In this document: in pieces, positions 4,507-39,668 of the stretch | Numbering within the stretch: the first letter of the stretch is position 1 | How the letters are laid out: the number at the start of each line of letters is the position of its first letter | Assembly: GCA_005222965.1 (NCBI GenBank) | Contig: NJBG01000001.1 | Location: 960,167-1,000,545 of the forward strand | Origin: Candidatus Woesearchaeota archaeon B3_Woes | GTDB taxonomy: Archaea; Nanobdellota; Nanobdellia; Woesearchaeales; B3-WOES | Direction of reading: 5' to 3' | Length of the DNA stretch: 40,379 bases | Made by a program: the position numbers and the translations under genes | The notes under the pieces: model-generated | The model's database searches: none | Seen by the model: only the letters and a program-made list of their open reading frames with translations | What the model was told of the DNA's origin: nothing

Positions 4507-4528
4507 TTTAAATTAAAAAGAAAAAAAA

Positions 4529-6430
4529 TTATTTCTTCTTCTTATCTTTTTCTTCTTCTACTTTGTAATCAGCATCAACTACTTTCTCATCTTTCTTGTC
4601 ATCTTTTCCCTTTTCCTGTTGTTTTGCAGCTTGTTCCTGAGCAACTTTCTGATACATTTCTGTTGACATCTTCTGAACAATCTCATTAACTTCTTCCATT
4701 TTCTTTTTTATTACTGCTGAATCTTTCTTCTCAGGTTTAAGAAGTTCTTTTAATTCCATTATTTTCCCTTTGACTTCTTCTAATTCTTTTTTATCAACTT
4801 TCCCTTCAAAATCCTTAAACATCTTTTCACTAGAAAATACCAAAGCATCTGCCTGATTAATTACTTCAACTTCTTCTTTTCTTTTCTTGTCTTCTTCTGC
4901 ATGCTCTTCTGCATCTTTCTTCATCTTTTCAATATCTTCATCATTTAGTTTTTGTGATGCTGTAATTTGGATTTTTTGTTCTTTTCCAGTTCCCATATCT
5001 TTTGCAGATACATGTATAATTCCATTTGCATCAATATCAAATGTAACCTCTATTTGAGGTATACCTCTTGGTGCAGGTGGAATTCCTACTAAATCAAATC
5101 TACCCAAGCTTTTATTATCTGCAGCCATCGGACGCTCCCCTTGTAAAACATTTATAGTTACTGCTGGCTGATTATCTGCAGCTGTTGAAAATGTCTGGCT
5201 TTTTTTAGATGGAATAGTTGTATTCCTTGCAATAAGTTCTGTTCTAACTCCTCCTAAAGTTTCAATACCTAAAGTTAGAGGTGTAACATCTAATAATAAG
5301 ATATCTTTAACCTCTCCTGCTAGTATTCCTGCCTGGATTGCTGCTCCATTAGCAACACACTCCATAGGATCTACTCCTCTTTCAGCCTTTTTTCCAACAA
5401 AATCTTCTACAAATTTCTTTACAATAGGCATTCTTGTAGGACCACCAACTAAGATTATCTTGTCTATATCACTTGAACTTAATTTAGAATCTTTCAAAGC
5501 TTGTTCTAAAGGATGTTTGCATTTTTCAACAAGATCTCCAACTAAATTTTCTAATTTAGCTCTTGAAATTTTCATTGTTAAATGTTTAGGTGTTCCATCC
5601 TTCTCAGCAACAAAAGGCAGATTAATATCTGTTTCAGTTGTATTTGACAATTCAATTTTTGCTTTTTCAGCAGCCTCTCTAATACGCTGCATAGCAGTTG
5701 GATCATCACCTACATCAATACCTTCTTTTTTCTTGAATTCTTCTATAATATGATTCATTAAGGTATTATCCATATCTGTTCCACCTAATTGTGTATCTCC
5801 TGAAGTAGATTTAACCTCAAATACACCATCTCCAAACTCCATTACTGTAACATCTAATGTTCCGCCACCAAAATCAAAAACTAATATTTTAATTTCTTTT
5901 TCTGACTTATCTAATCCATAAGCCATAGAAGCAGAAGTAGGTTCATTTACTAGTCTAACAACATCTAATCCAGCAATTGTTCCTGCATCTTTTGTTGCCT
6001 GTCTTTGATCATCATCAAAATAAGCAGGTACAGTAATAACTGCCTTTTTTATTGGCTCCCCAACAAATTCTTCTGCATCTTTCTTTATCTTTTGTAAAAG
6101 AAAAGCAGATATTTGCTGAGGTGTATACTCTTTATCATTAATCTTGTATTTATGTTTTGTACCAATCTTTCTTTTTGCAGCAGTTATTGTTCTTTCAGGA
6201 TTAGAAACAGCCTGTCTTCTTGCAGGTTCTCCAACCAACTTCTGATTGTCTTCAGTAAAAGCCACAACAGACGGAAATGCTTTTCCATACTGTGTTATTC
6301 CTTCTGCAGATGGAATTATTGTAGGTTTCCCTGCTTGCAAAATAGCTGCAGCAGAATTACTTGTCCCTAAATCAATTCCAATTATCTTCTCTTTTTTTGT
6401 AGATTTTTCTTTTTTATCATCATTTGTCAT
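4529..6430 (-). CDS. dnaK: Chaperone DnaK (Hsp70)
   Basis: [31 protein letters not shown] signatures. Confidence 0.99.
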
Positions 6431-16605: not shown

Positions 16606-17544
16606 CTATAAATTATTTTCAAAAATTTTGAGAGTTTTAATCAAAGTAGAAGCGTACTCTTTTGCAATTTCTCTATAACTTTCTCCAGGAAGTTCGTTGT
16701 TATAATATAAAATTATCCCTCTGGGTAAACCTTGCTTAAAATCTGCTTTAAATATTCGAATTTTTTCTTTGTCTATGAACTGACCCATCTGTAAAACAAT
16801 CCAATTTTCAGAACTTCTATCAATTTCGTAATTTGGATATTCTCCGCTTTCTAATTTTGGTCTTCTTTTTATTCTAAAGTATTTTGGTTTTGTGTTTTTG
16901 TCATGTTCGGTAAATAGAATTTTTGATTCATATATTACTCCCGATCTTATTCTCTCTAGCTCTTGCTCCAAAAACTTTGGATAGTCGTCCTCATTTACAT
17001 TATTTGGTATATCAATAGTAGGAAGATAAACTTTAGGGTCATATTCTTTATAAGTATTACTTAAAAGTTCTCCCACTATTTTTTGATCTCTTTCTGATAA
17101 TTTTTCTATAAACTCTTCTAAAGTTCCAGGATAAACCTTTAAAATTTTAGGAAAACCTAAATCTAAAACAAGACCCTCAAAATTAATTTGCGAAACGCAC
17201 TCACAAGAATAAAATAAGTCGGACATGATAATCTCATTTTCTTGGTTAAGCCTAGAATATTTTCTTTTAATTTTATCTATATCTATAAATCGTTCAAAAG
17301 CAAGTCTCCCTAATTTTTTAGTTACCTTTATTTCTAAATAGCCATGGGGACATCTATCTTTATCATTCATTCTATATCCTAAATCAACTTGAACATGTTT
17401 TCTTAAATCTTCTGGAAGGAATTCATTTAGCATAATTCCTCTGCTGCCCTCTCCCGGTCTTGGTTTTTTGAGAAGAATATCTATTATTTTGTCTAAAGGT
17501 TTTTGCCGAATAATTTCCTTTTGTTTTTTGACCATTTTGACCAC
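16606..17544 (-). CDS. Hypothetical protein
   Basis: 312-aa ORF divergent from TrmB gene; no recognised motif. Confidence 0.65.
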   Translation of the reverse strand: MVKMVKKQKEIIRQKPLDKIIDILLKKPRPGEGSRGIMLNEFLPEDLRKHVQVDLGYRMNDKDRCPHGYLEIKVTKKLGRLAFERFIDIDKIKRKYSRLNQENEIIMSDLFYSCECVSQINFEGLVLDLGFPKILKVYPGTLEEFIEKLSERDQKIVGELLSNTYKEYDPKVYLPTIDIPNNVNEDDYPKFLEQELERIRSGVIYESKILFTEHDKNTKPKYFRIKRRPKLESGEYPNYEIDRSSENWIVLQMGQFIDKEKIRIFKADFKQGLPRGIILYYNNELPGESYREIAKEYASTLIKTLKIFENNL

Positions 17545-17605: not shown

Positions 17606-18367
17606 ATGGAAGATATAAAATATTTACTTAAGGAATTGGGATTAACAGAATATGAGACAAAAGCTTATTTATCACTCTTGCAATTAGAGAAATCCATAAC
17701 TGCATACAAACTCAGTAAAATTTGTGGGGTGCCCTTTGGAAGAATTTATGATATTATGGACAATTTAGTTTCTAAAGGAATAGTTATACTTGAACCGGGA
17801 AAACCAAAAAGATTTAAGGCAATTGAACCGAAAATAGCAGTTTCTGCTTTGCTAACTAAGAAAGATGTGGAATGGCAACAAACTAAAATCAAAATAAAAG
17901 ATATAGTAAATAAACTTCAAAGAAAAATCACAAGCGAAGAGCCAGTAACCATGATGAAAGGAAAAGAGGTTCTTCTCTGGAAAATTTTGGAAATTTATAG
18001 CAAAGCAAAAAAAGAAGTTTTGATAATTGCTGGAACATTAGGAGCAAAAAGAAAAGGAATAGATCTTGGGAATTGTGCAAGAGAAGGTATCAAAAAAGGA
18101 GTAAAATTTAAGATGATTATTCCATCAGTTAAAGAAGTTAAACAACCAATTAAAGAGTTGGTAAAAGTAGGTATAGATATAAGAGAATATCCTATTAAAG
18201 GAATTAGATTTAGCATTATCGATGAAAAGTTATGTTTTTTAAGTATAGAAGATCAAAAATTTTCATATAAAACTGCAACTATAATAGTGGAATCTGAAAT
18301 ATTTAGTAAAGCTATGAAAGAATTCTTTAATGGAATTTGGGAAAAGGCCAGAGTAGTGAAAAAATAG
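17606..18367 (+). CDS. TrmB family transcriptional regulator
   Basis: LGLTEYETKAYLSLL...VPFGRIYDIMDNLVSKG HTH plus effector domain (AKKEVLI, IIDEK). Confidence 0.92.
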   Translation: MEDIKYLLKELGLTEYETKAYLSLLQLEKSITAYKLSKICGVPFGRIYDIMDNLVSKGIVILEPGKPKRFKAIEPKIAVSALLTKKDVEWQQTKIKIKDIVNKLQRKITSEEPVTMMKGKEVLLWKILEIYSKAKKEVLIIAGTLGAKRKGIDLGNCAREGIKKGVKFKMIIPSVKEVKQPIKELVKVGIDIREYPIKGIRFSIIDEKLCFLSIEDQKFSYKTATIIVESEIFSKAMKEFFNGIWEKARVVKK

Positions 18368-18380
18368 AAACTTAGTTAAA

Positions 18381-18695
18381 TTACTCTAATTTTTTTGGTA
18401 TTTTTATTTTAAACATATTTTTATATGCTTCAACTTCATATGAAATATTTTTATATGCTTTATTATAATTTTTATACTTAAGAATGTTTATTAGTAGCTC
18501 AATTAACCATTTAAAATAAAATTGAAAGAAACCCTTTTTTCTTATTTGAATAATATGAATCCATTCATGATGAGTAATTCTTTTCTTAAAAGATATTGGC
18601 TCAGAATGCCTTATGAAAATATAAGGATAGAGAGTTATTCCATTTTTTTTAAATAATCTAGGTAGCCAATGATTATACCTAATTTTTATTTTCAT
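18381..18695 (-). CDS. Small zincin-like protein (HExxH)
   Basis: GITLYPYIF, HHEWIHIIQ, ISYEVEAY. Confidence 0.7.
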   Translation of the reverse strand: MKIKIRYNHWLPRLFKKNGITLYPYIFIRHSEPISFKKRITHHEWIHIIQIRKKGFFQFYFKWLIELLINILKYKNYNKAYKNISYEVEAYKNMFKIKIPKKLE

Positions 18696-18714
18696 ATAAT
18701 AATCACCTAGAAAA

Positions 18715-18951
18715 CTATCTACCTCTCAAATTCCAATACTCTATAAAAACCAAAACCCCAATTATTATAAAAAGCATATACCATTTTATACTTAATATAA
18801 GAATAATTAAACCTAAAACACACAAAATCAAAACCAAATAAAAGCATAACAATATTCTTTTTATCCACTCAACATCTAAAAAATTAATATTATCCATAGC
18901 AGTTTTATGTAAGCCATTTATTGTTTTCCAAACTAAACTTTCAAATTCCAT
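18715..18951 (-). CDS. Small membrane hypothetical protein
   Basis: Two hydrophobic segments; ORF-track extension to 19065 reads through the att-like repeat and is probably non-coding. Confidence 0.5.
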   Translation of the reverse strand: MEFESLVWKTINGLHKTAMDNINFLDVEWIKRILLCFYLVLILCVLGLIILILSIKWYMLFIIIGVLVFIEYWNLRGR

Positions 18952-19006
18952 TCTAATATAACATATAGCACAAAACCCATTTAAATATTTTTCTAAAAAG
19001 AAAGCT

Positions 19007-19060
19007 CCACGGCCCAGACTAGATACTTTTTGTACCCCTAAGATGGCGCCAATTAAAAAA
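19007..19060 (-). repeat. attR-like site: 12-bp copy of tRNA-Ser 3' end plus arm shared with 20408-20461
   Basis: CCACGGCCCAGA (19007-19018) identical to 22901-22912; 48/54 identity to 20408-20461. Confidence 0.85.
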
Positions 19061-19074
19061 TACACTTTTTAAAT

Positions 19075-20304
19075 TTAAGCATTTTCTTCTTTTATTTCTG
19101 GATTTCTTGGTACAATAAATCTTGAATAAATAAAACTAAAAATCATTGCAAGAATATTTGTGCTCAAAACCAATAAAAGAACTATTTCTGTTAGTGAAGG
19201 AATCACAATTTGCTCTTTTAATGGAATAAATGCTAATACAGTTGCAATAAACCCCCGAGGTATCATTGTAACTATTATGAATGAATAGGGTTTAAGTGTT
19301 TTATCTATCTTTACTACTATATTTAGACTAATTAATCTTACAAAGATTATTATCAATAAAACAATTCCTACAATCACCAAGATCAAATTAGTGATATTTT
19401 TTAAATTAAATATTGCACCAATCAAGACAAAAAAGAAAACTCTCACTAAGAATGAAATATCTTCCTGAACAGACCTTATAGATTTGATTATCTTTTTTGC
19501 AGGATCATAAACAACCTCTTTTGGGCCAATAAATTTTTTATGGATAGCAGGATAGTTTCCAATAAGTAAGCTAAATACAAGAACAGCTATTAAACCCTCA
19601 CCATTTAAAAGCTCTGTCAAGCCGTATAACAAGAATAATGCTCCAACTGAAGAGATATAATTAAGTCTTGGTAATTCGATCTTTTTGAGTATATTAATCC
19701 AAATGTATCCTATAATAAATCCTAAAACAACCGCAATAGAGATACTCGAAAAGATTGATTTCAAAATATGCCCCCCTACAAGCTGTTTGTTTATTAACAG
19801 AATAACACTAACACCAAAGATTATTGTAAAATCATTGATTACTGTTTCAAGAAAGATGAGATGTTTTGTATTATAACTTACATTTAATTTATTTATTAGT
19901 GTCATTGCAGTGACTGTTGTAGTTCCACTAGCAATCACACCCAAAAGAAGAGCATGTAAAAGTTGCCAATTAAAAAATGAATAAAGTATAAAACCAATAA
20001 AAAAAGTGCTTAATACACCTATCATAATTGTAAATAAAAAGGACCTACCCAATCTTTTAAGAACCTTAAAAACATTAAAGTTTAAACCACAATCAAGCAA
20101 AACAATCATTAATGCTAGGATAGAAACAAAAGGAACTATTGGTAATAGAACATCTACCTTTATGAACCCAAACACCGGCCCAATCAAAAGACCTATAACA
20201 ATCAAGAATATTGATTCGGGTACCTTTGTTTTTTGATAGGATATCCTACCAAGATAACCTATGATAATTATCAAACCTATAGTAATGAATATGTTTTGAA
20301 TCAT
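19075..20304 (-). CDS. Cation:proton antiporter (NhaP/CPA1 type)
   Basis: Many TM segments, P...LI..GLLIGP, LETVIND (ES..ND motif), FFFVLIG, IPRG. Confidence 0.88.
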   Translation of the reverse strand: MIQNIFITIGLIIIIGYLGRISYQKTKVPESIFLIVIGLLIGPVFGFIKVDVLLPIVPFVSILALMIVLLDCGLNFNVFKVLKRLGRSFLFTIMIGVLSTFFIGFILYSFFNWQLLHALLLGVIASGTTTVTAMTLINKLNVSYNTKHLIFLETVINDFTIIFGVSVILLINKQLVGGHILKSIFSSISIAVVLGFIIGYIWINILKKIELPRLNYISSVGALFLLYGLTELLNGEGLIAVLVFSLLIGNYPAIHKKFIGPKEVVYDPAKKIIKSIRSVQEDISFLVRVFFFVLIGAIFNLKNITNLILVIVGIVLLIIIFVRLISLNIVVKIDKTLKPYSFIIVTMIPRGFIATVLAFIPLKEQIVIPSLTEIVLLLVLSTNILAMIFSFIYSRFIVPRNPEIKEENA

Positions 20305-20359
20305 TTATTTTATCTACTGCTAATCTTATATAAATATATTTCTATTAAGAAAAAATCAG

Positions 20360-20461
20360 AATTTATAAATCTTTCTATTTTGTTACTACCACTTAGTAAA
20401 GAATACGCCACGGTCCAGCTAAGATACTTTTTGTACCCCTAAAATGGCGTCAATTAAAAAA
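20360..20461 (-). repeat. attP-like junction: tRNA-Ser 3' core flanked by both arms
   Basis: 20360-20418 matches 22854-22911; 20408-20461 matches 19007-19060. Confidence 0.85.
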
Positions 20462-20477
20462 GAAAAAGGGTTTGGCT

Positions 20478-21599
20478 TTAACGTGTTCGTTGAAGTACAT
20501 TCATAACAACATCATTATCTACATGAGTTGCATATGTACCATTAAATTCATGCATTTGACCAATAGAAATTGGAAGAACATATCTTGCTTTACCATCTTT
20601 TGCTTTCTTATCTCTTGAAGTTACATCGATTATATTTTCATTGGAGATTCCATTTGGAATAGTTATAGGTAAACCAACTGCCACCAATAATGCTTCTTGG
20701 GCTTGCAAATCTTTTTGAGAAAAATAACCCAATCGGTTTGCTATTCTTCCAGCAACCATCATACCTATTGCAACGGCTTCACCATGCGATAATTCAAAAT
20801 TGCTCAATTTTTCCACAGCATGACCAACAGTATGTCCATAATTAAGTATTTTTCTTAATCCCTTTTCATGCGGATCAACTTCAACTACATTTCCTTTTAT
20901 GCCACAATTATTTTTAGCTATATACAATGAAGATTCTGAAGATCTCTCAAGAACCAAACCAACATTTTCTTGTAAATAGTTAAAGAACTCTGCATCTTGA
21001 ATTACACCATGTTTTATAGTTTCTGCTAAGCCATTCCTATAATCTTCTTCAGAAAGTGTTTTTAATGTTGCAACATCAATGTAAACTCGTTCAGGTTGCT
21101 TGAATGCACCAACTAAATTTTTTCCATATTCAGTATCAACAGCAGTTTTTCCTCCAATTGACGAATCTGCTTGAGCAAGAACAGTAGTTGGAATTTGAAT
21201 ATATGGGATGCCTCTGTTAAATATTGTTGCCATAAACCCCGCCATATCTCCAACAACTCCACCCCCAAGTGCAAGAATTGCAGAGTCTCTCCCGTACGTA
21301 TGATGAGACATTTCACCCATCATTGTCATGCAAGAATCTATTGTTTTATTTTGTTCTCCTGCTTCAAAAGAAAATATTTGAGTTTCAATTCCTTCACTCC
21401 TTAAAGCATCTTCTAAGGATTCTTCATATAATTCTCTAACATTTGAATCTGTAACTATAGCGTATCTAGAACCAATAGGTTTATCTTTTAAATCCGATGC
21501 TATTTGAGGAAATAATTCATTTCCAAAAACAAGGTTATAGGACTCATCTATTTCCCTTTTCAGATTTATTCTCATTACATTATCTTTTGATTCAACCAT
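20478..21599 (-). CDS. aroB: 3-dehydroquinate synthase
   Basis: ALGGGVVGD, PTTVLAQADSSIGGKT, KNLVGAF, LNYGHTVGHA, HGEAVAIG; TATA at 21621 favours ATG 21599. Confidence 0.92.
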   Translation of the reverse strand: MVESKDNVMRINLKREIDESYNLVFGNELFPQIASDLKDKPIGSRYAIVTDSNVRELYEESLEDALRSEGIETQIFSFEAGEQNKTIDSCMTMMGEMSHHTYGRDSAILALGGGVVGDMAGFMATIFNRGIPYIQIPTTVLAQADSSIGGKTAVDTEYGKNLVGAFKQPERVYIDVATLKTLSEEDYRNGLAETIKHGVIQDAEFFNYLQENVGLVLERSSESSLYIAKNNCGIKGNVVEVDPHEKGLRKILNYGHTVGHAVEKLSNFELSHGEAVAIGMMVAGRIANRLGYFSQKDLQAQEALLVAVGLPITIPNGISNENIIDVTSRDKKAKDGKARYVLPISIGQMHEFNGTYATHVDNDVVMNVLQRTR

Positions 21600-21641
21600 G
21601 CTCTTGGCATTCTTAGTATATTTATAAATCTTCACAAATCC

Positions 21642-22331
21642 TTATTCTTTACCCAGATTAACAGGGTGGTATAGACTAATGTGAGTATTTCCTGGCTCAG
21701 AAGTTATTCCTAATGGGGCTTGAAGATATTTTGAAGCAAGTGTTGCAAAATACAATCCAAAACCAGTTCCCCCTTGACGAGACCTTAAAGTTACTCCAAA
21801 CTCAAGAAAATCTTTTAATGGTTTGTCTTTTGGGAAACCTTCTCCTGTATCATGTACATCAAATTTCATAAAATAACCTCCTTGTTTTGCACCCTTTGGA
21901 ATAAAAACTGGATTTTTAATAATACCACCAAGATGCTCACTAATTGTAAGAGTAACAGTACCTTCTTCTCGTCCTATAGCATTAAATCCATTCTTAGCCA
22001 GATTATAAAGTGCAGAATATAAAATACACGCGTCTCCAACTAATGTTTTTTCATTTGTATTAATATTAACAGATAAATCTTTTTTATCAGCCTTAAAAAC
22101 TCCTTGCATGGTCTCTAAGTGATTATTAATTCCTAATATGTTGTAATGACAATCCTGTTGTGTTAACTGAGATATGGCCATTATTACACGTCCAACATGA
22201 GAATTTCTATAGTGGGCAAAATCTTCCTCTCCTTGAAGAAGAGTCATGCCGTGTTGACTCATGATATCGTGCCCAATTAGTCCTGTTACTGATACTTTCT
22301 CTTCCAAAGTTAATGGGTTTTCTACGTTCAT
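21642..22331 (-). CDS. Minimal histidine-kinase-like protein (H-box plus HATPase_c, no sensor domain)
   Basis: IGHDI, LYNLAKNG (N-box), HDTGEGF (G1), GTGFGL (G2), SEPG. Confidence 0.75.
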   Translation of the reverse strand: MNVENPLTLEEKVSVTGLIGHDIMSQHGMTLLQGEEDFAHYRNSHVGRVIMAISQLTQQDCHYNILGINNHLETMQGVFKADKKDLSVNINTNEKTLVGDACILYSALYNLAKNGFNAIGREEGTVTLTISEHLGGIIKNPVFIPKGAKQGGYFMKFDVHDTGEGFPKDKPLKDFLEFGVTLRSRQGGTGFGLYFATLASKYLQAPLGITSEPGNTHISLYHPVNLGKE

Positions 22332-22367
22332 TTTAGACTTTAACTCATCATAGTAGAAGTTGGTTTT

Positions 22368-22823
22368 TTAAATACCAGTTAACATATTTGCAATCCTAAC
22401 CACTTCAGTATAATGAACTTGCATTAGTTCTTTACCAATAACTTGTTCAGGATCATAAATATGTGCTTGAAGCACTTCTTCAGTGCCTACGACTTGTAAA
22501 TTTTGTACAAAATTCAATTTGTCCTGTTCAGATAAATTAGCTGTATCTGGTCCTGCGTATTTACCTTTTTTTTCAAATAAAATAAACTGACCGTTTTGAG
22601 GCTTAAAATCTAAGCTTTCTATATCAGGATCAACTTGATATAGTTTATTATTTATAGGATCATATCCATCACCATCTTCTCCACACATAAATAAACCAAG
22701 GAATCTTCTACTAAAAACATGTGCTTTCTCACCTTGCATTTGTCCAAGAATAAACCGAGTAGCTTCATCCTGACTTTCGGAAAGTTTACCTTGATAAGTT
22801 TCAATTATATCTGATAAATCCAT
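22368..22823 (-). CDS. Hypothetical protein
   Basis: ORF ~30 nt downstream of TATA at 22856-22863. Confidence 0.65.
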   Translation of the reverse strand: MDLSDIIETYQGKLSESQDEATRFILGQMQGEKAHVFSRRFLGLFMCGEDGDGYDPINNKLYQVDPDIESLDFKPQNGQFILFEKKGKYAGPDTANLSEQDKLNFVQNLQVVGTEEVLQAHIYDPEQVIGKELMQVHYTEVVRIANMLTGI

Positions 22824-22898
22824 ATAAATCACTGATTTACTGGAATTTATACTAATTTATAAATCTTTCGGTTCGTAACTACTATTTAGTAAAGAATA

Positions 22899-22981
22899 CG
22901 CCACGGCCCAGATTTGAACTGGGATATCCAGAGGAAACAAGATTTCCAATCTTGCGCAGTACCAAGTTGTGCCACCGTGGC
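22899..22981 (-). tRNA. tRNA-Ser(GGA), intronless, CCA not encoded
   Basis: GCCACGG/CCGTGGC acceptor, CAAGA-TTGGAAA-TCTTG anticodon arm, long variable arm, CCCAG-TTCAAAT-CTGGG T arm, G discriminator. Confidence 0.96.
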
Positions 22982-23117
22982 TTAGAAAAAAGAGAAGTAT
23001 AACTATTTATAAAAGTTATGTAAAGAATTTATTTTTCAAAAGATTTTTAAAGATTATACTAGTTATAAACAAGAAGAGGTGGTAAAAACCTCAGATTAGA
23101 TTTCTGAGTGAATTAAT

Positions 23118-23861
23118 ATGAGCGACAATAGTATAATACCCTCTAAGATTTACAAACCCTTTGGTGATATAAAACAATTAGCATATGACAGGTCAAGGAC
23201 TGTTGTAGATTTAAATCCATTTCTTCAAGATGTTTTTGAAGGAAGAGATAGAGTATTAGGAAAACCAGATTTTAAAAGATTTGAAACAAATGGCGATGTA
23301 ACTACCTATTTTTTCAGAATGCAAGAGTTCTTTCAAGCTTTCATGCCTAAGTATGGTGTTGATAATGTAAATAATTTTTTTACACAGCATCTTTCAACTG
23401 ATGAACTTCAATCAGAATCATTTTTAACAATGATAGGAAAATTTAGTGAGGACTATTATAAAGTTCTTTTTGGAGATTCACGTTATACAAAAAAAGGAAA
23501 TGTGACATTATTCCCTTTAAATCTACCTCGAAAAGAGCTGTCAACTTTATTACGAACTCATAAATTAAGAAGAGATGAAAAACTCTGGATATATGGTGGA
23601 TATTGTTTATCTAAGTCAAGATTTTTAGAGGAATCAGTAAATTGGTATGTCCCAGATGAACCCAATTGTAATGATCATTATGGAACAGATGTGTCATTAG
23701 ATAAATTAATCAAAGTTCAATTTGATTTTATATTTGAAGGAAAGGATGTAATATTTATGCCAAGAAGTGGGGAACTAGATGTACCTACTGAATTTGAAAT
23801 GATTGTACGTTATAAAATTCCTACAGATAATCTAACGATTATAAGAAAACCAAAAGAATAA
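23118..23861 (+). CDS. Hypothetical protein
   Basis: 247-aa ORF between tRNA-Ser and rps10, opposite strand. Confidence 0.7.
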   Translation: MSDNSIIPSKIYKPFGDIKQLAYDRSRTVVDLNPFLQDVFEGRDRVLGKPDFKRFETNGDVTTYFFRMQEFFQAFMPKYGVDNVNNFFTQHLSTDELQSESFLTMIGKFSEDYYKVLFGDSRYTKKGNVTLFPLNLPRKELSTLLRTHKLRRDEKLWIYGGYCLSKSRFLEESVNWYVPDEPNCNDHYGTDVSLDKLIKVQFDFIFEGKDVIFMPRSGELDVPTEFEMIVRYKIPTDNLTIIRKPKE

Positions 23862-24171: not shown

Positions 24172-24240
24172 TTTCTAAGTTATCTTGGTGTTTGCCCCAT
24201 AATAAACCCAGTTTATCATGACTTCAAAAAAGAAAAAAAA

Positions 24241-25524
24241 TTATTTCTTCTTAACTAAGTCAATACACATTCCAGCAGCAACAGTTGCTCCAGAATCTCT
24301 GATAGCAAATCTTGAGAGCTGTGGAATCTCTTTTTGTTTCTCAATGCACATTGGCTGTACAGGCTTTATTTTTATAATTGCCGCATCTCCATTCTTGATG
24401 AAATCTGGGTTTTCTTGTAGAGTTTCACCAGTCTTTGGATTCAATTTCTTCTCAATAGCCATTATTTGACAAGCCACTTGAGCAGTATGAATATGGAATA
24501 CTGGTGTATATCCTACTGTCATAACAGTTGGATGATTTAATACAACTATCTGAGCAGTAAACTCTGAAGCCAATGTAGGTGGATTGTCAACAGGACCTAA
24601 AACATCTCCTCTTGCAATATCTTTCTTACCAATTCCCCTAACACTAAATCCAACATTATCTCCTGGTTGTGCTTCCTGCATTTGTTCATGGTGCATCTCA
24701 ATTGTTTTAACTTCTCCTTGTACACCTTTTCCTTCTCTTCCAGGAACTACAATTACTTTCTGTCCTACTTTCATAACTCCTGTTTCAACTCTTCCAACAG
24801 GAACAACACCAATACCAGTTATACTATAGACATCCTGGATAGGTAGTCTTAAAGGTAAATTAGTTGGTTTTTCAGGTACAGTTAATGTATCTAATGTTTT
24901 AAGTAATGTTTCTCCAGAATACCATGACATGTTTTCTGATTTTTTAACAACATTATCTCCTACTAAAGAAGCAATAGGAACAAAAGTTATTTTGCTTGGA
25001 TCATATCCAACACTTTGTAACAATTTTTCAACTTCCCCTTTAACTTCATTAAATCTTTTCTCATCATATTTGACCATATCCATCTTATTAACAGCTACAA
25101 TTATTTGATTAACACCTAATGTTTTAGCTAAGAAGATATGTTCTTTTGTCTGAGCCATAACTCCGTCGTTAGCAGCCACTACAACAACACCAGCATCTGC
25201 TTGTGCAGCACCAGTAATCATATTTTTAATAAAATCTTTATGTCCAGGTGCGTCAATTATTGTAAAATAATATTTAGGAGTCTCAAATTTTTTATGAGCT
25301 AAGTCAATTGTAACTCCCCTTTCTCTCTCTTCCTTTAGATTATCCATAACAAAAGCAAATTCAAAACCACCCTTTCCTAACTCCTCTGCTTTCTCTTTTA
25401 ATTTCCTCATAGTCTGTTCGTCAATATTTCCAGAATCAAATAATAACCTGCCCACACTAGTTGATTTACCATGATCTACATGACCTACAAATACTAAATT
25501 CATATGTTCTTTTTTCTCTGCCAT
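24241..25524 (-). CDS. tuf: Translation elongation factor EF-1alpha
   Basis: [27 protein letters not shown]; archaeal type. Confidence 0.99.
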
Positions 25525-25854: not shown

Positions 25855-27454
<1,600 letters not shown>

Positions 27455-38925: not shown

Positions 38926-39035
38926 AGCATTTTAAGAAACATTCCTTATATAAATGTGTCGTTTATTTTCCACAACATATATTTATATGTTTATTGTTAA
39001 TGCGATTATTAGGTAAAAATGTTACGAATATAAAA

Positions 39036-39668
39036 ATGAAACATTTAAAATTGAGTCTATTTGGGGGAAAAGAAAAAGATTTTTCTGGATTAGAATTAGC
39101 TTTGAGAACAGATTCAACTGAATTGAAAGGTGTTCAAATTGGAGGAGTAAATTATGTTGAAAAGAAGGTTGAGGGGGTTCAAATTGGAGGTGTAAATGTT
39201 GTTGAAGGGGATGCTAATGGTGTTCAAGCAGGAGTTTTTAATTGTGCTGGAGAAGAAGTAAGAGGGGTTCAATCTGGTGTATGGGACTATACTCAATTTA
39301 TGAAGGGTGTTCAAATTGGAGGAATAAATTATGTTGAGAAGTATGTTAAGGGGGTTCAAGCAGGAGTTTTTAATATTGCTGGAGAAGAAGTAAATGGTGT
39401 TCAAGTTTCACAATTTCTTAATTGCGCTGAAAAAGTAAATGGTGTTCAAGTTTCACAATTTCTTAATTTGGCGGGGAAGGTAAATGGTGTTCAAGCAGGA
39501 ATAATTAATTTAGCTGGTGAAAAAATGCGTGGCGTTCAAATATCTGCATTATATAATATTTGCACAAGAGATAGCAGAGGTGTTCAAATTGGACTACTAA
39601 ACCATAGTTATGGTGCCCAATGGTATAAAAGATATCTTCCTTTGATTGCAATAAGAACTGGAAAATAG
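39036..39668 (+). CDS. Beta-helix repeat protein (LA_2272-like GVQxGxxN repeats)
   Basis: About 11 repeats of ~15 aa; start may be 39000. Confidence 0.75.
   Translation: MKHLKLSLFGGKEKDFSGLELALRTDSTELKGVQIGGVNYVEKKVEGVQIGGVNVVEGDANGVQAGVFNCAGEEVRGVQSGVWDYTQFMKGVQIGGINYVEKYVKGVQAGVFNIAGEEVNGVQVSQFLNCAEKVNGVQVSQFLNLAGKVNGVQAGIINLAGEKMRGVQISALYNICTRDSRGVQIGLLNHSYGAQWYKRYLPLIAIRTGK

Follow-up and report, generated by a model that had tools for sequence, protein, structure and literature searches.

A tRNA-Ser(GGA) gene in a 40,379-nucleotide (nt) stretch of the genome of Candidatus Woesearchaeota archaeon B3_Woes (GenBank assembly GCA_005222965.1, contig NJBG01000001.1; the whole stretch is referred to as the window) is followed by two short gene units, each of which is delimited by partial copies of the tRNA 3' end (the core) and by one of two repeated arms, X and Y, at either side. 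On the minus strand, the order is tRNA-core-X-[hyp154, HATPase_c protein, aroB]-Y-core-X'-[NhaP-type antiporter]-Y'-core-flank. The explanation that we favour, with a probability of roughly 0.6, is that two site-specific integrations, one after the other, into the 3' end of tRNA-Ser(GGA) gave rise to the locus, and that the units are old, domesticated relics devoid of an integrase. In terms of attachment (att) sites, the tRNA-core-X, Y-core-X and Y-core-flank junctions support the attL, attP-like and attR layout of two integrations, and the order of cores and arms agrees with the first-pass annotation of the window, which had read it as two successive integrations at one tRNA attB. The elements of these junctions are the following:

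22899..22981, minus strand: intact tRNA-Ser(GGA) (ARAGORN; Rfam RF00005, 52.3 bits), the final 13 nt of which (22899-22911) constitute core copy 1, on the attL side
22854..22898, minus strand: X arm, 45 nt long and immediately behind the tRNA (three-way alignment of the junctions, from which its palindrome was also read)
20419..20461, minus strand: Y arm (43 nt), behind aroB and ending at core copy 2 (repeat comparison and three-way alignment)
20406..20418, minus strand: core copy 2, CTGGACCGTGGCG on this strand, with one mismatch to the tRNA (core counts and three-way alignment)
20360..20405, minus strand: X' arm (46 nt), behind the middle core (three-way alignment)
19018..19060, minus strand: Y' arm (43 nt), starting 14 nt past the NhaP stop codon and preceding the distal core (three-way alignment)
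19005..19017, minus strand: core copy 3, CTGGGCCGTGGAG on this strand, with one mismatch, on the attR side (core counts and three-way alignment)
18958..19004, minus strand: distal flank (B'), presumably the original tRNA trailer (only 0.28% of the window 24-mers match X as well)

The core comprises the 3' strand of the T-stem, the 3' strand of the acceptor stem and the discriminator of the tRNA, and reads CGCCACGGCCCAG on the plus strand and CTGGGCCGTGGCG on the minus strand. The part of it that reads CCACGGYCCAG occurs three times in the window (19007, 20408 and 22901), against a chance expectation of 0.11 and with none of 100 shuffled sequences reaching three or more; a fourth copy was not found in the window, even with one mismatch allowed. 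The full 13-nt core is located at 22899, 20406 and 19005, the latter two with one mismatch each, and no further copy exists elsewhere in the window at up to three mismatches. The substitutions in copies 2 and 3 affect different positions, and all three cores are in direct orientation. The start-to-start spacings between junctions are 2493 bp (unit 1) and 1401 bp (unit 2). Both the threefold occurrence of the tRNA-Ser 3' end and the sizes of the units had been annotated at first pass, and both hold.

The arms are the longest non-coding direct repeats that a whole-window repeat scan retrieves, and they are 86-88% identical between copies (12-14% divergence). X and X' share a block of 16 identical nt out of 16 (22854-22869 and 20360-20375) and a second block, extending through the core, with 35 of 40 positions identical (22872-22911 and 20379-20418), which blastn-short recovers within the window as a 59-nt match at 86.4% identity (E 5.7e-8). 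The Y pair together with the core is identical at 55 of 64 nt (86%; 18997-19060 and 20398-20461), and the corresponding blastn-short match spans 40 nt at 95% (E 2.4e-13). These comparisons substantiate the two earlier proposals of one arm common to the tRNA and middle junctions and of another common to the middle and distal ones. The Y 20-mer GATACTTTTTGTACCCCTAA is found exactly at 19022 and 20423 and at no other window site with up to three mismatches, and neither arm has a third copy in the 40-kb window. The middle Y-core-X' junction is an attP-like sequence of about 102 nt, and the implied attP (Y, core and X) measures about 100 bp.

Each arm also presents distinctive internal features. 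The first 15 nt are identical in X and X' (TATTCTTTACTAA...), and they are followed by an imperfect palindrome, TTACTA-N5-TAGTTA in X and TTACTA-N5-TAGTAA in X', one arm of which is altered in X. On the minus strand, Y opens with a terminator-like run of six T residues, 17 nt past the aroB stop codon, and the homology between the two Y copies sets in 17 nt after the stop codon of aroB and 14 nt after that of NhaP. No known RNA family is represented in the junctions, according to an Rfam scan of 18300-23200 that returned the tRNA only (the next best match was a CRISPR-DR model, E 0.95). The junction DNA folds no better than its shuffles (z-scores of -1.54, -1.28 and +1.15), for which reason the junctions are not considered attC-like.

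According to the proposed mechanism, two related circular elements with a common attP of about 100 bp, consisting of the Y arm, the 13-nt core and the X arm, would have been inserted one after the other. Each crossover within the core would have regenerated the tRNA and pushed the earlier insert outward, so that the NhaP unit would have been inserted first, provided that the tRNA-proximal site served for the second event. Everything but the adaptive genes would then have been lost or, alternatively, the units may have been non-autonomous from the start. The recombinase that made the junctions was probably of the tyrosine type, and the order of the two events just given is likewise the probable one. 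The units appear to be immobile at present, nothing in these results showing that they still move; excision or carriage could still occur if a matching integrase were supplied from another part of the genome or by an element arriving from outside. The relic reading follows from the fact that the units have no recombinase and are full of intact, host-like genes with their own archaeal promoters. Age and fixation, in turn, are deduced from the single substitution in each non-tRNA core, the 12-14% divergence of the arms, the host-like cargo and the lineage-wide aroB clade described below. Decayed islands had already been offered in the first-pass annotation as an alternative to its cassette reading, and they fit better than the latter.

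From the perspective of the integrating enzyme, neither unit contains a recognisable recombinase, replication or transfer gene, and the Pfam, NCBIfam and PHROG scans uphold the initial statement that integrase and replication genes are missing from them. Of the 44 window open reading frames (ORFs; at least 90 aa) that were scanned, none has a match at E <= 0.001 to any family of integrases, recombinases or transposases; the list comprised 54, the other 10 being nested, antisense or inside rRNA. No recombinase-type Pfam match appears for eight unannotated ORFs even at E <= 5, and nine ORFs compared with PHROGs gave no integrase match. Several candidates for a hidden integrase were rejected. The 312-aa orphan hyp312 (16606-17544), located 1.5 kb past the distal core, has no Pfam match at E <= 5, no PHROG integrase match and no H-x-x-R box detectable by eye, and the language-model Atlas gave no usable lead for it. 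The product of hyp247 and those of the small ORFs were discarded with the same Pfam and PHROG outcome. An integrase of the 'suicidal' type known from the SSV viruses, whose gene includes the attP and is split by integration into two halves on either side of the insert, is not suggested either, given that no frame is open across Y-core-X and neither arm lies in a recombinase-like ORF; the only ORF at this junction (20233-20442, plus strand, 69 aa) ends inside Y. As for hyp247 itself, this 247-aa gene situated across the tRNA (23118-23861, plus strand) has no Pfam or PHROG match, and a word-indexed search of a collection of 5.8 billion proteins returned no relative but itself.

The cargo of the two units consists of four genes:

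22368..22832, minus strand: first gene of unit 1, hyp154, with a likely ATG start at 22823 (151 aa); member of a rare family of unknown function
21642..22331, minus strand: second gene of unit 1, encoding a 229-aa histidine-kinase-like protein with a HATPase_c domain at residues 103-223 and no sensor domain (PF02518, E 5.3e-7)
20478..21635, minus strand: third gene of unit 1, aroB, encoding 3-dehydroquinate synthase (TIGR01357, 357.3 bits, equivalog cut-off 305; Pfam DHQ_synthase and DHQS_C)
19075..20304, minus strand: sole gene of unit 2, encoding a 409-aa cation/proton antiporter of the CPA1/NhaP type (PF00999, E 1.6e-33)

The hypothetical gene, aroB and the NhaP-type antiporter had been named as such at first pass, while the 'kinase' listed with them turns out to be histidine-kinase-like and not a shikimate kinase. 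This protein gives weak matches to NCBIfam sensor-kinase models, all of them under the cut-off, and the antiporter similarly matches the NCBIfam K+/H+ and Na+/H+ antiporter models below their cut-offs. The true start of aroB is likely the ATG at about 21599, as its relatives align from residue 12-13 onwards. Hardly any non-coding DNA separates the genes from the arms in either unit, and the ORF map leaves no room for gene remnants. The composition of the cargo is that of its surroundings: GC content lies between 0.29 and 0.35 (0.305 +/- 0.036 for the 40 other window genes), GC content at third codon positions between 0.16 and 0.23 (0.199 +/- 0.035), and the codon-usage distance falls inside the range of those 40 genes.

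The product of hyp154 has no Pfam, NCBIfam or PHROG match, and no match among PDB sequences (best E 0.02). Besides itself, 13 remote homologs, 32-51% identical, were found among 1.84e9 representatives; in the word-indexed search it is an orphan, to which a profile search adds four singleton relatives on short contigs. Its AlphaFold2 model, built from an alignment of 10 relatives, is a confident alpha/beta structure (pLDDT 91.2) with no PDB structure match at E <= 0.001. The nearest clusters in language-model space are viral hypothetical proteins (0.93), which is a lead only, and tblastn against 50,697 phage records gave nothing. Speculatively, hyp154 might be the sensing partner of the adjoining kinase-like protein, which has no sensor of its own.

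Promoter-like signals are associated with the X arms and with the genes themselves. The 16-mer GAAAGATTTATAAATT, a B recognition element and TATA box (BRE/TATA), stands at the end of both X and X' facing the cargo, in agreement with the earlier description of such a signal in the shared arm pointing into the cargo. It conforms well to the local BRE/TATA consensus and, among 41 upstream regions, is perfect only in X and X'; versions with three mismatches precede aroB, a 119-aa gene and the EF-1alpha gene by 35-73 nt, and versions with four mismatches lie upstream of eleven more genes. Since similar versions precede other genes, the identity of the X arms is in part the promoter consensus of the organism. 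In X, the element is placed 46 nt before the ATG of hyp154, a plausible promoter distance; in X', it is 71 nt from the ATG of NhaP, and a second TATA-like run (20330-20342) lies nearer the gene. The aroB gene has its own BRE/TATA-like sequence, TGAAGATTTATAAATA, 35 nt upstream of the likely ATG.

Beyond the distal core, the flank resembles the beginning of X at six of the first eight and 14 of the first 24 nt, a degree of identity that 0.28% of the window 24-mers equal. This likeness is expected if the attP carried homology to the tRNA trailer. The flank also contains a BRE/TATA-like sequence, GAAAAATATTTAAATG, and 42 nt separate it from the downstream ATG (18951) of a 78-aa membrane ORF. The two genes just past the distal core (18381-18695 and 18715-18951, both on the minus strand) are the most AT-rich of the window, with GC contents of 20.6% and 24.1%, respectively, compared with a mean of 30.5%. 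HEWIH in the 104-aa protein of this pair is an HExxH motif, and the protein matches PHROG 15610, 'protease' (E 4.3e-13). A further, older insert may have left these two genes behind; a fourth core was looked for and not found.

The aroB gene was searched for in 185,579 species genomes, and 80 loci with flanks of 10 kb were kept, among which the window's own genome does not figure. These include five relatives from Woesearchaeota or Nanoarchaeota and 75 bacterial loci. The closest aroB sequences are 65-74% identical and belong to metagenome-assembled genomes (MAGs) labelled Woesearchaeota, Nanoarchaeota or 'archaeon', and the scanned collection yielded no close relative. When 24 window proteins were compared with the five relatives, only aroB and a weak TrmB match were recovered, and no tRNA-Ser is present within 10 kb on either side of aroB in any of the five. 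Even among themselves, the relatives have almost no aroB neighbours in common: the gene is accompanied by proteasome and FttA genes, by eIF2B-like and prefoldin genes, by UPF0047 and helix-turn-helix regulator genes, or by thermosome and response-regulator genes. The varied context of aroB is uninformative on mobility, because the relatives lack synteny for everything, also with each other. Two further observations concern this gene. Neither in the window nor in any of the five relatives does aroB have another gene of the shikimate pathway nearby. It is found directly behind a gene for a two-component protein in two of the six genomes, kinase-like in the window (20478-22331) and a response regulator in relative L005 (984-2626); the 214-aa product encoded upstream of aroB in relative L001 is unrelated to the 229-aa HATPase_c protein.

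Att-like repeats around aroB were sought in four of these relatives (L001, L002, L003 and L005; in L004, which was left out, aroB is at a contig end) and nothing convincing was obtained. The best repeat pair bracketing the gene, 43 nt at 74% in L005, has one copy inside the thermosome gene, and the 19-nt pair of L002 lies in coding sequence. Copies of the core are likewise absent from the five relatives, and copies of the arms from all 80 aroB loci, where blastn-short of the three junctions gave chance-level matches only, the best one being 29 nt of the A-rich query tail in a Dehalococcoidia MAG (E 0.006). The junction arms have no match in the phage collection, and their sole match in the plasmid collection corresponds to 129 nt of aroB coding sequence in Fusobacterium. 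The search for further copies of the arm that had been recommended at first pass, covering the window, the 80 loci and both collections, thus ended without any. In an aroB tree of 21 sequences including the window (of 22 loci selected from the 80, L001 and L009 were left out), the window sequence forms a clade with support of 100/100 together with those of four Woesearchaeota/Nanoarchaeota MAGs, and this archaeal clade is nested among bacterial sequences, next to Myxococcota-labelled and Chlorobiaceae MAGs (99/95). The placement points to an old acquisition of a bacterial-type gene by the lineage and not to a recent import into the window's genome.

Several groups of known elements provide a frame for this layout. 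The 3' ends of tRNA genes are a classical integration target in archaea and bacteria, and partial tRNA copies are common integration scars in archaea (PMC9897764). For archaeal elements, both the tandem reuse of att sites and the loss of the integrase after integration are described (PMC8371274, PMC6563490), and the smallest thaumarchaeal integrated element quoted measures 2.6 kb and still has its integrase (PMC6563490). The present locus has tRNA targets, partial tRNA duplication, tandem reuse and integrase loss in common with archaeal integrase-less elements and gene capture (PMC8371274, PMC6563490, PMC9897764). In contrast, the described archaeal integrated elements range from 2.6 kb to more than 100 kb and keep genes for replication, winged helix-turn-helix proteins, virions or conjugation, whereas these units comprise only a metabolic enzyme, a kinase-like protein, a protein of unknown function and a transporter.

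Among bacterial systems, the cis-mobilizable elements (CIMEs) of streptococci are integrase-less, att-flanked units in tandem (PMC5704250), and in Dehalococcoides, where 15 of the islands at ssrA have no integration module, the CIME idea has been proposed for them (PMC3146451). Like the present locus, the CIMEs related to ICESt1/ICESt3 and the ssrA islands, formed by tandem accretion, are bounded by attL/attR-type repeats of the 3' end of a small-RNA gene, and they lie in tandem with chimeric internal att sites; genes for integration or transfer are missing from them, and their cargo is adaptive (PMC5704250, PMC3146451). The defining trait of a CIME, att-type repeats that are kept while the integration and transfer genes are missing, is present at this locus. 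The streptococcal and Dehalococcoides elements differ in their bacterial hosts and in their length, which is usually between several kb and tens of kb, compared with 1.4 and 2.5 kb in a DPANN archaeon here. Moreover, functional partners of the same family adjoin those elements, prove their origin and can move them, whereas no partner or integrase is known for these units. From the usual marks of integrative elements, a tRNA 3' repeat with an intact tRNA is present, and an element-encoded integrase and a deviant composition or phylogeny are not seen. Elements of the IMEX type, which have no integrase, use the host Xer recombinase at dif and can stack in tandem at their target; at the present locus, tRNA-Ser is targeted at its 3' end instead of dif.

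Integron cassette arrays also consist of small, mostly single-gene units without a recombinase, arranged head to tail at one site. They depend, however, on an IntI integrase gene with attI and a Pc promoter next to it and on attC sites, imperfect inverted repeats that fold as single strands, and their cassettes are promoterless. In the window, no intI/attI platform is present, the junctions are not folded attC-type sites, the units have their own promoters and the array abuts a tRNA gene, the 3' end of which is the target. An integron-type mechanism is not indicated, because there is no excess folding, no RNA-family match and no lack of promoters in the units. The resemblance to integron arrays is one of layout only, and with this locus the known integrase-less, att-flanked tandem kind gains another archaeal example, of unusually small size. 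A limited full-text literature search retrieved no description of such scars in DPANN archaea, which is not a claim of absence.

The preference for integrase-less relics has to be balanced against several observations. The 40-kb window yielded no integrase whatsoever, and the integrating agent is one that we wholly infer; at 1.4 and 2.5 kb, the units fall well short of the sizes described for integrated elements of archaea. That two larger islands should have decayed at random until only intact genes remained, flush with both arms, is not what would most readily be expected, and a dedicated cassette would look like this result. The cargo (aroB and an antiporter) is housekeeping-like and not element-like, and its composition bears no sign of a foreign origin, which would equally fit genes that were never mobile. 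Because the tidy fit of arms and genes in both units is not well predicted by decay, the cassette reading is kept alive, in which active, non-autonomous minimal cassettes of one to three genes and an attP of about 100 bp would be moved in trans by a tRNA-Ser-specific recombinase encoded elsewhere and stack at the tRNA, much as integron cassettes do, or Xer-dependent elements at dif. This we regard as unlikely. The tight build of the units speaks for it, with Y homology starting 14 and 17 nt past the stop codons, X ending in a BRE/TATA that faces the cargo and no space for gene remnants in either unit, as does the fact that both arms are common to two unrelated cargos. The aroB neighbourhood differs in each of the five relatives, as would suit a mobile cassette, yet this says nothing where synteny is lacking throughout. 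It is difficult to reconcile active cassettes with the lack of a recombinase in the window, of a third arm copy in the window, the 80 loci or the phage and plasmid collections, and of att-like repeats around aroB in the four relatives examined. Cores and arms have diverged, and the differing core positions would hinder strand exchange if they lay in the overlap region; the composition of the cargo is host-like, and the X' promoter is 71 nt from the NhaP ATG with another TATA nearer to it. The 'trans-mobilised minimal cassette system' put forward at first pass therefore finds no support in these results, with no recombinase or further arms, host-like cargo and a lineage-wide aroB clade, and neither does the 'integron-like array', in view of 44 ORFs without an integrase, the missing attC-like fold and units that are not promoterless. 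A broader proposal, to which we give still less credence, is that Woesearchaeota-like archaea, with genomes of about 1 Mb, may own a family of integrase-less micro-cassettes with one to three genes each, moved by a tRNA-Ser-specific recombinase, whose attP of about 100 bp doubles as terminator (Y) and operator/promoter (X).

A different kind of explanation dispenses with mobile elements altogether. Core plus X and Y plus core might have been copied locally, by ectopic or slipped recombination or by rearrangement between older scars, and kept as promoter, operator and terminator modules. The contents of the arms lend themselves to this, considering the consensus promoter and the conserved imperfect palindrome of X, a possible operator, the terminator-like T6 run with which Y opens and the similar BRE/TATA versions that precede other window genes; the cargo is host-like in composition and, for aroB, also in phylogeny. 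A regulatory role, however, leaves unexplained the 13 copied tRNA nt at both junctions, as well as the exact overlap of both repeat pairs at the core in attL, attP-like and attR order. Two integrations account for such end points more parsimoniously than two independent local duplications would, and the junctions match no known RNA family, so that local copying is distinctly improbable in our view. A chimeric contig, joined by the assembler at the common tRNA fragment, would be a trivial source of the repeats and is very improbable indeed: as the repeat copies differ by 12-14%, being 86-88% identical and not the same, assembler collapse or duplication is unlikely, and the genes across the junctions are all intact and co-oriented, with a uniform composition, in a record that consists of one contig of 1,000,545 bp.

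If the units are relics, as preferred here, they represent a clean and small example of how site-specific integration may fix useful genes in a streamlined DPANN genome; tRNA fragments would mark such scars, which calls for caution among annotators, and the whole would be ordinary biology in a little-studied lineage. Should they be mobile even now, no smaller att-bounded mobile units would be known from archaea, and symbiotic archaea with minimal genomes would have in them a route for exchanging single housekeeping genes. A micro-cassette family, were it to exist, would shuffle metabolic and transport genes (aroB, NhaP) between genomes as an archaeal, tRNA-based functional analogue of integron cassettes.

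Regarding the general setting, the window is AT-rich, with about 30% GC in genes, and contains a linked 16S-23S rRNA operon together with genes for EF-1alpha, S10, DnaK/DnaJ/GrpE, methionyl-tRNA synthetase, ketol-acid reductoisomerase and several TrmB regulators. The 16S rRNA gene (25855-27454) measures 1600 nt, about 120 nt more than the 1478-position archaeal model; no large insertion is apparent in the alignment of model positions 1-728, and the extra sequence lies further 3'. An exact 26-nt repeat (4515-4540 and 24227-24252) is common to the ends of dnaK and the EF-1alpha gene, where it takes in the last codons, the stop codon and the T-rich trailer. Finally, coding tandem repeats with a period of 45 nt (15 aa) occupy positions 39117-39540, within an ORF on the plus strand (38994-39668) that encodes a 224-aa protein of no Pfam family.

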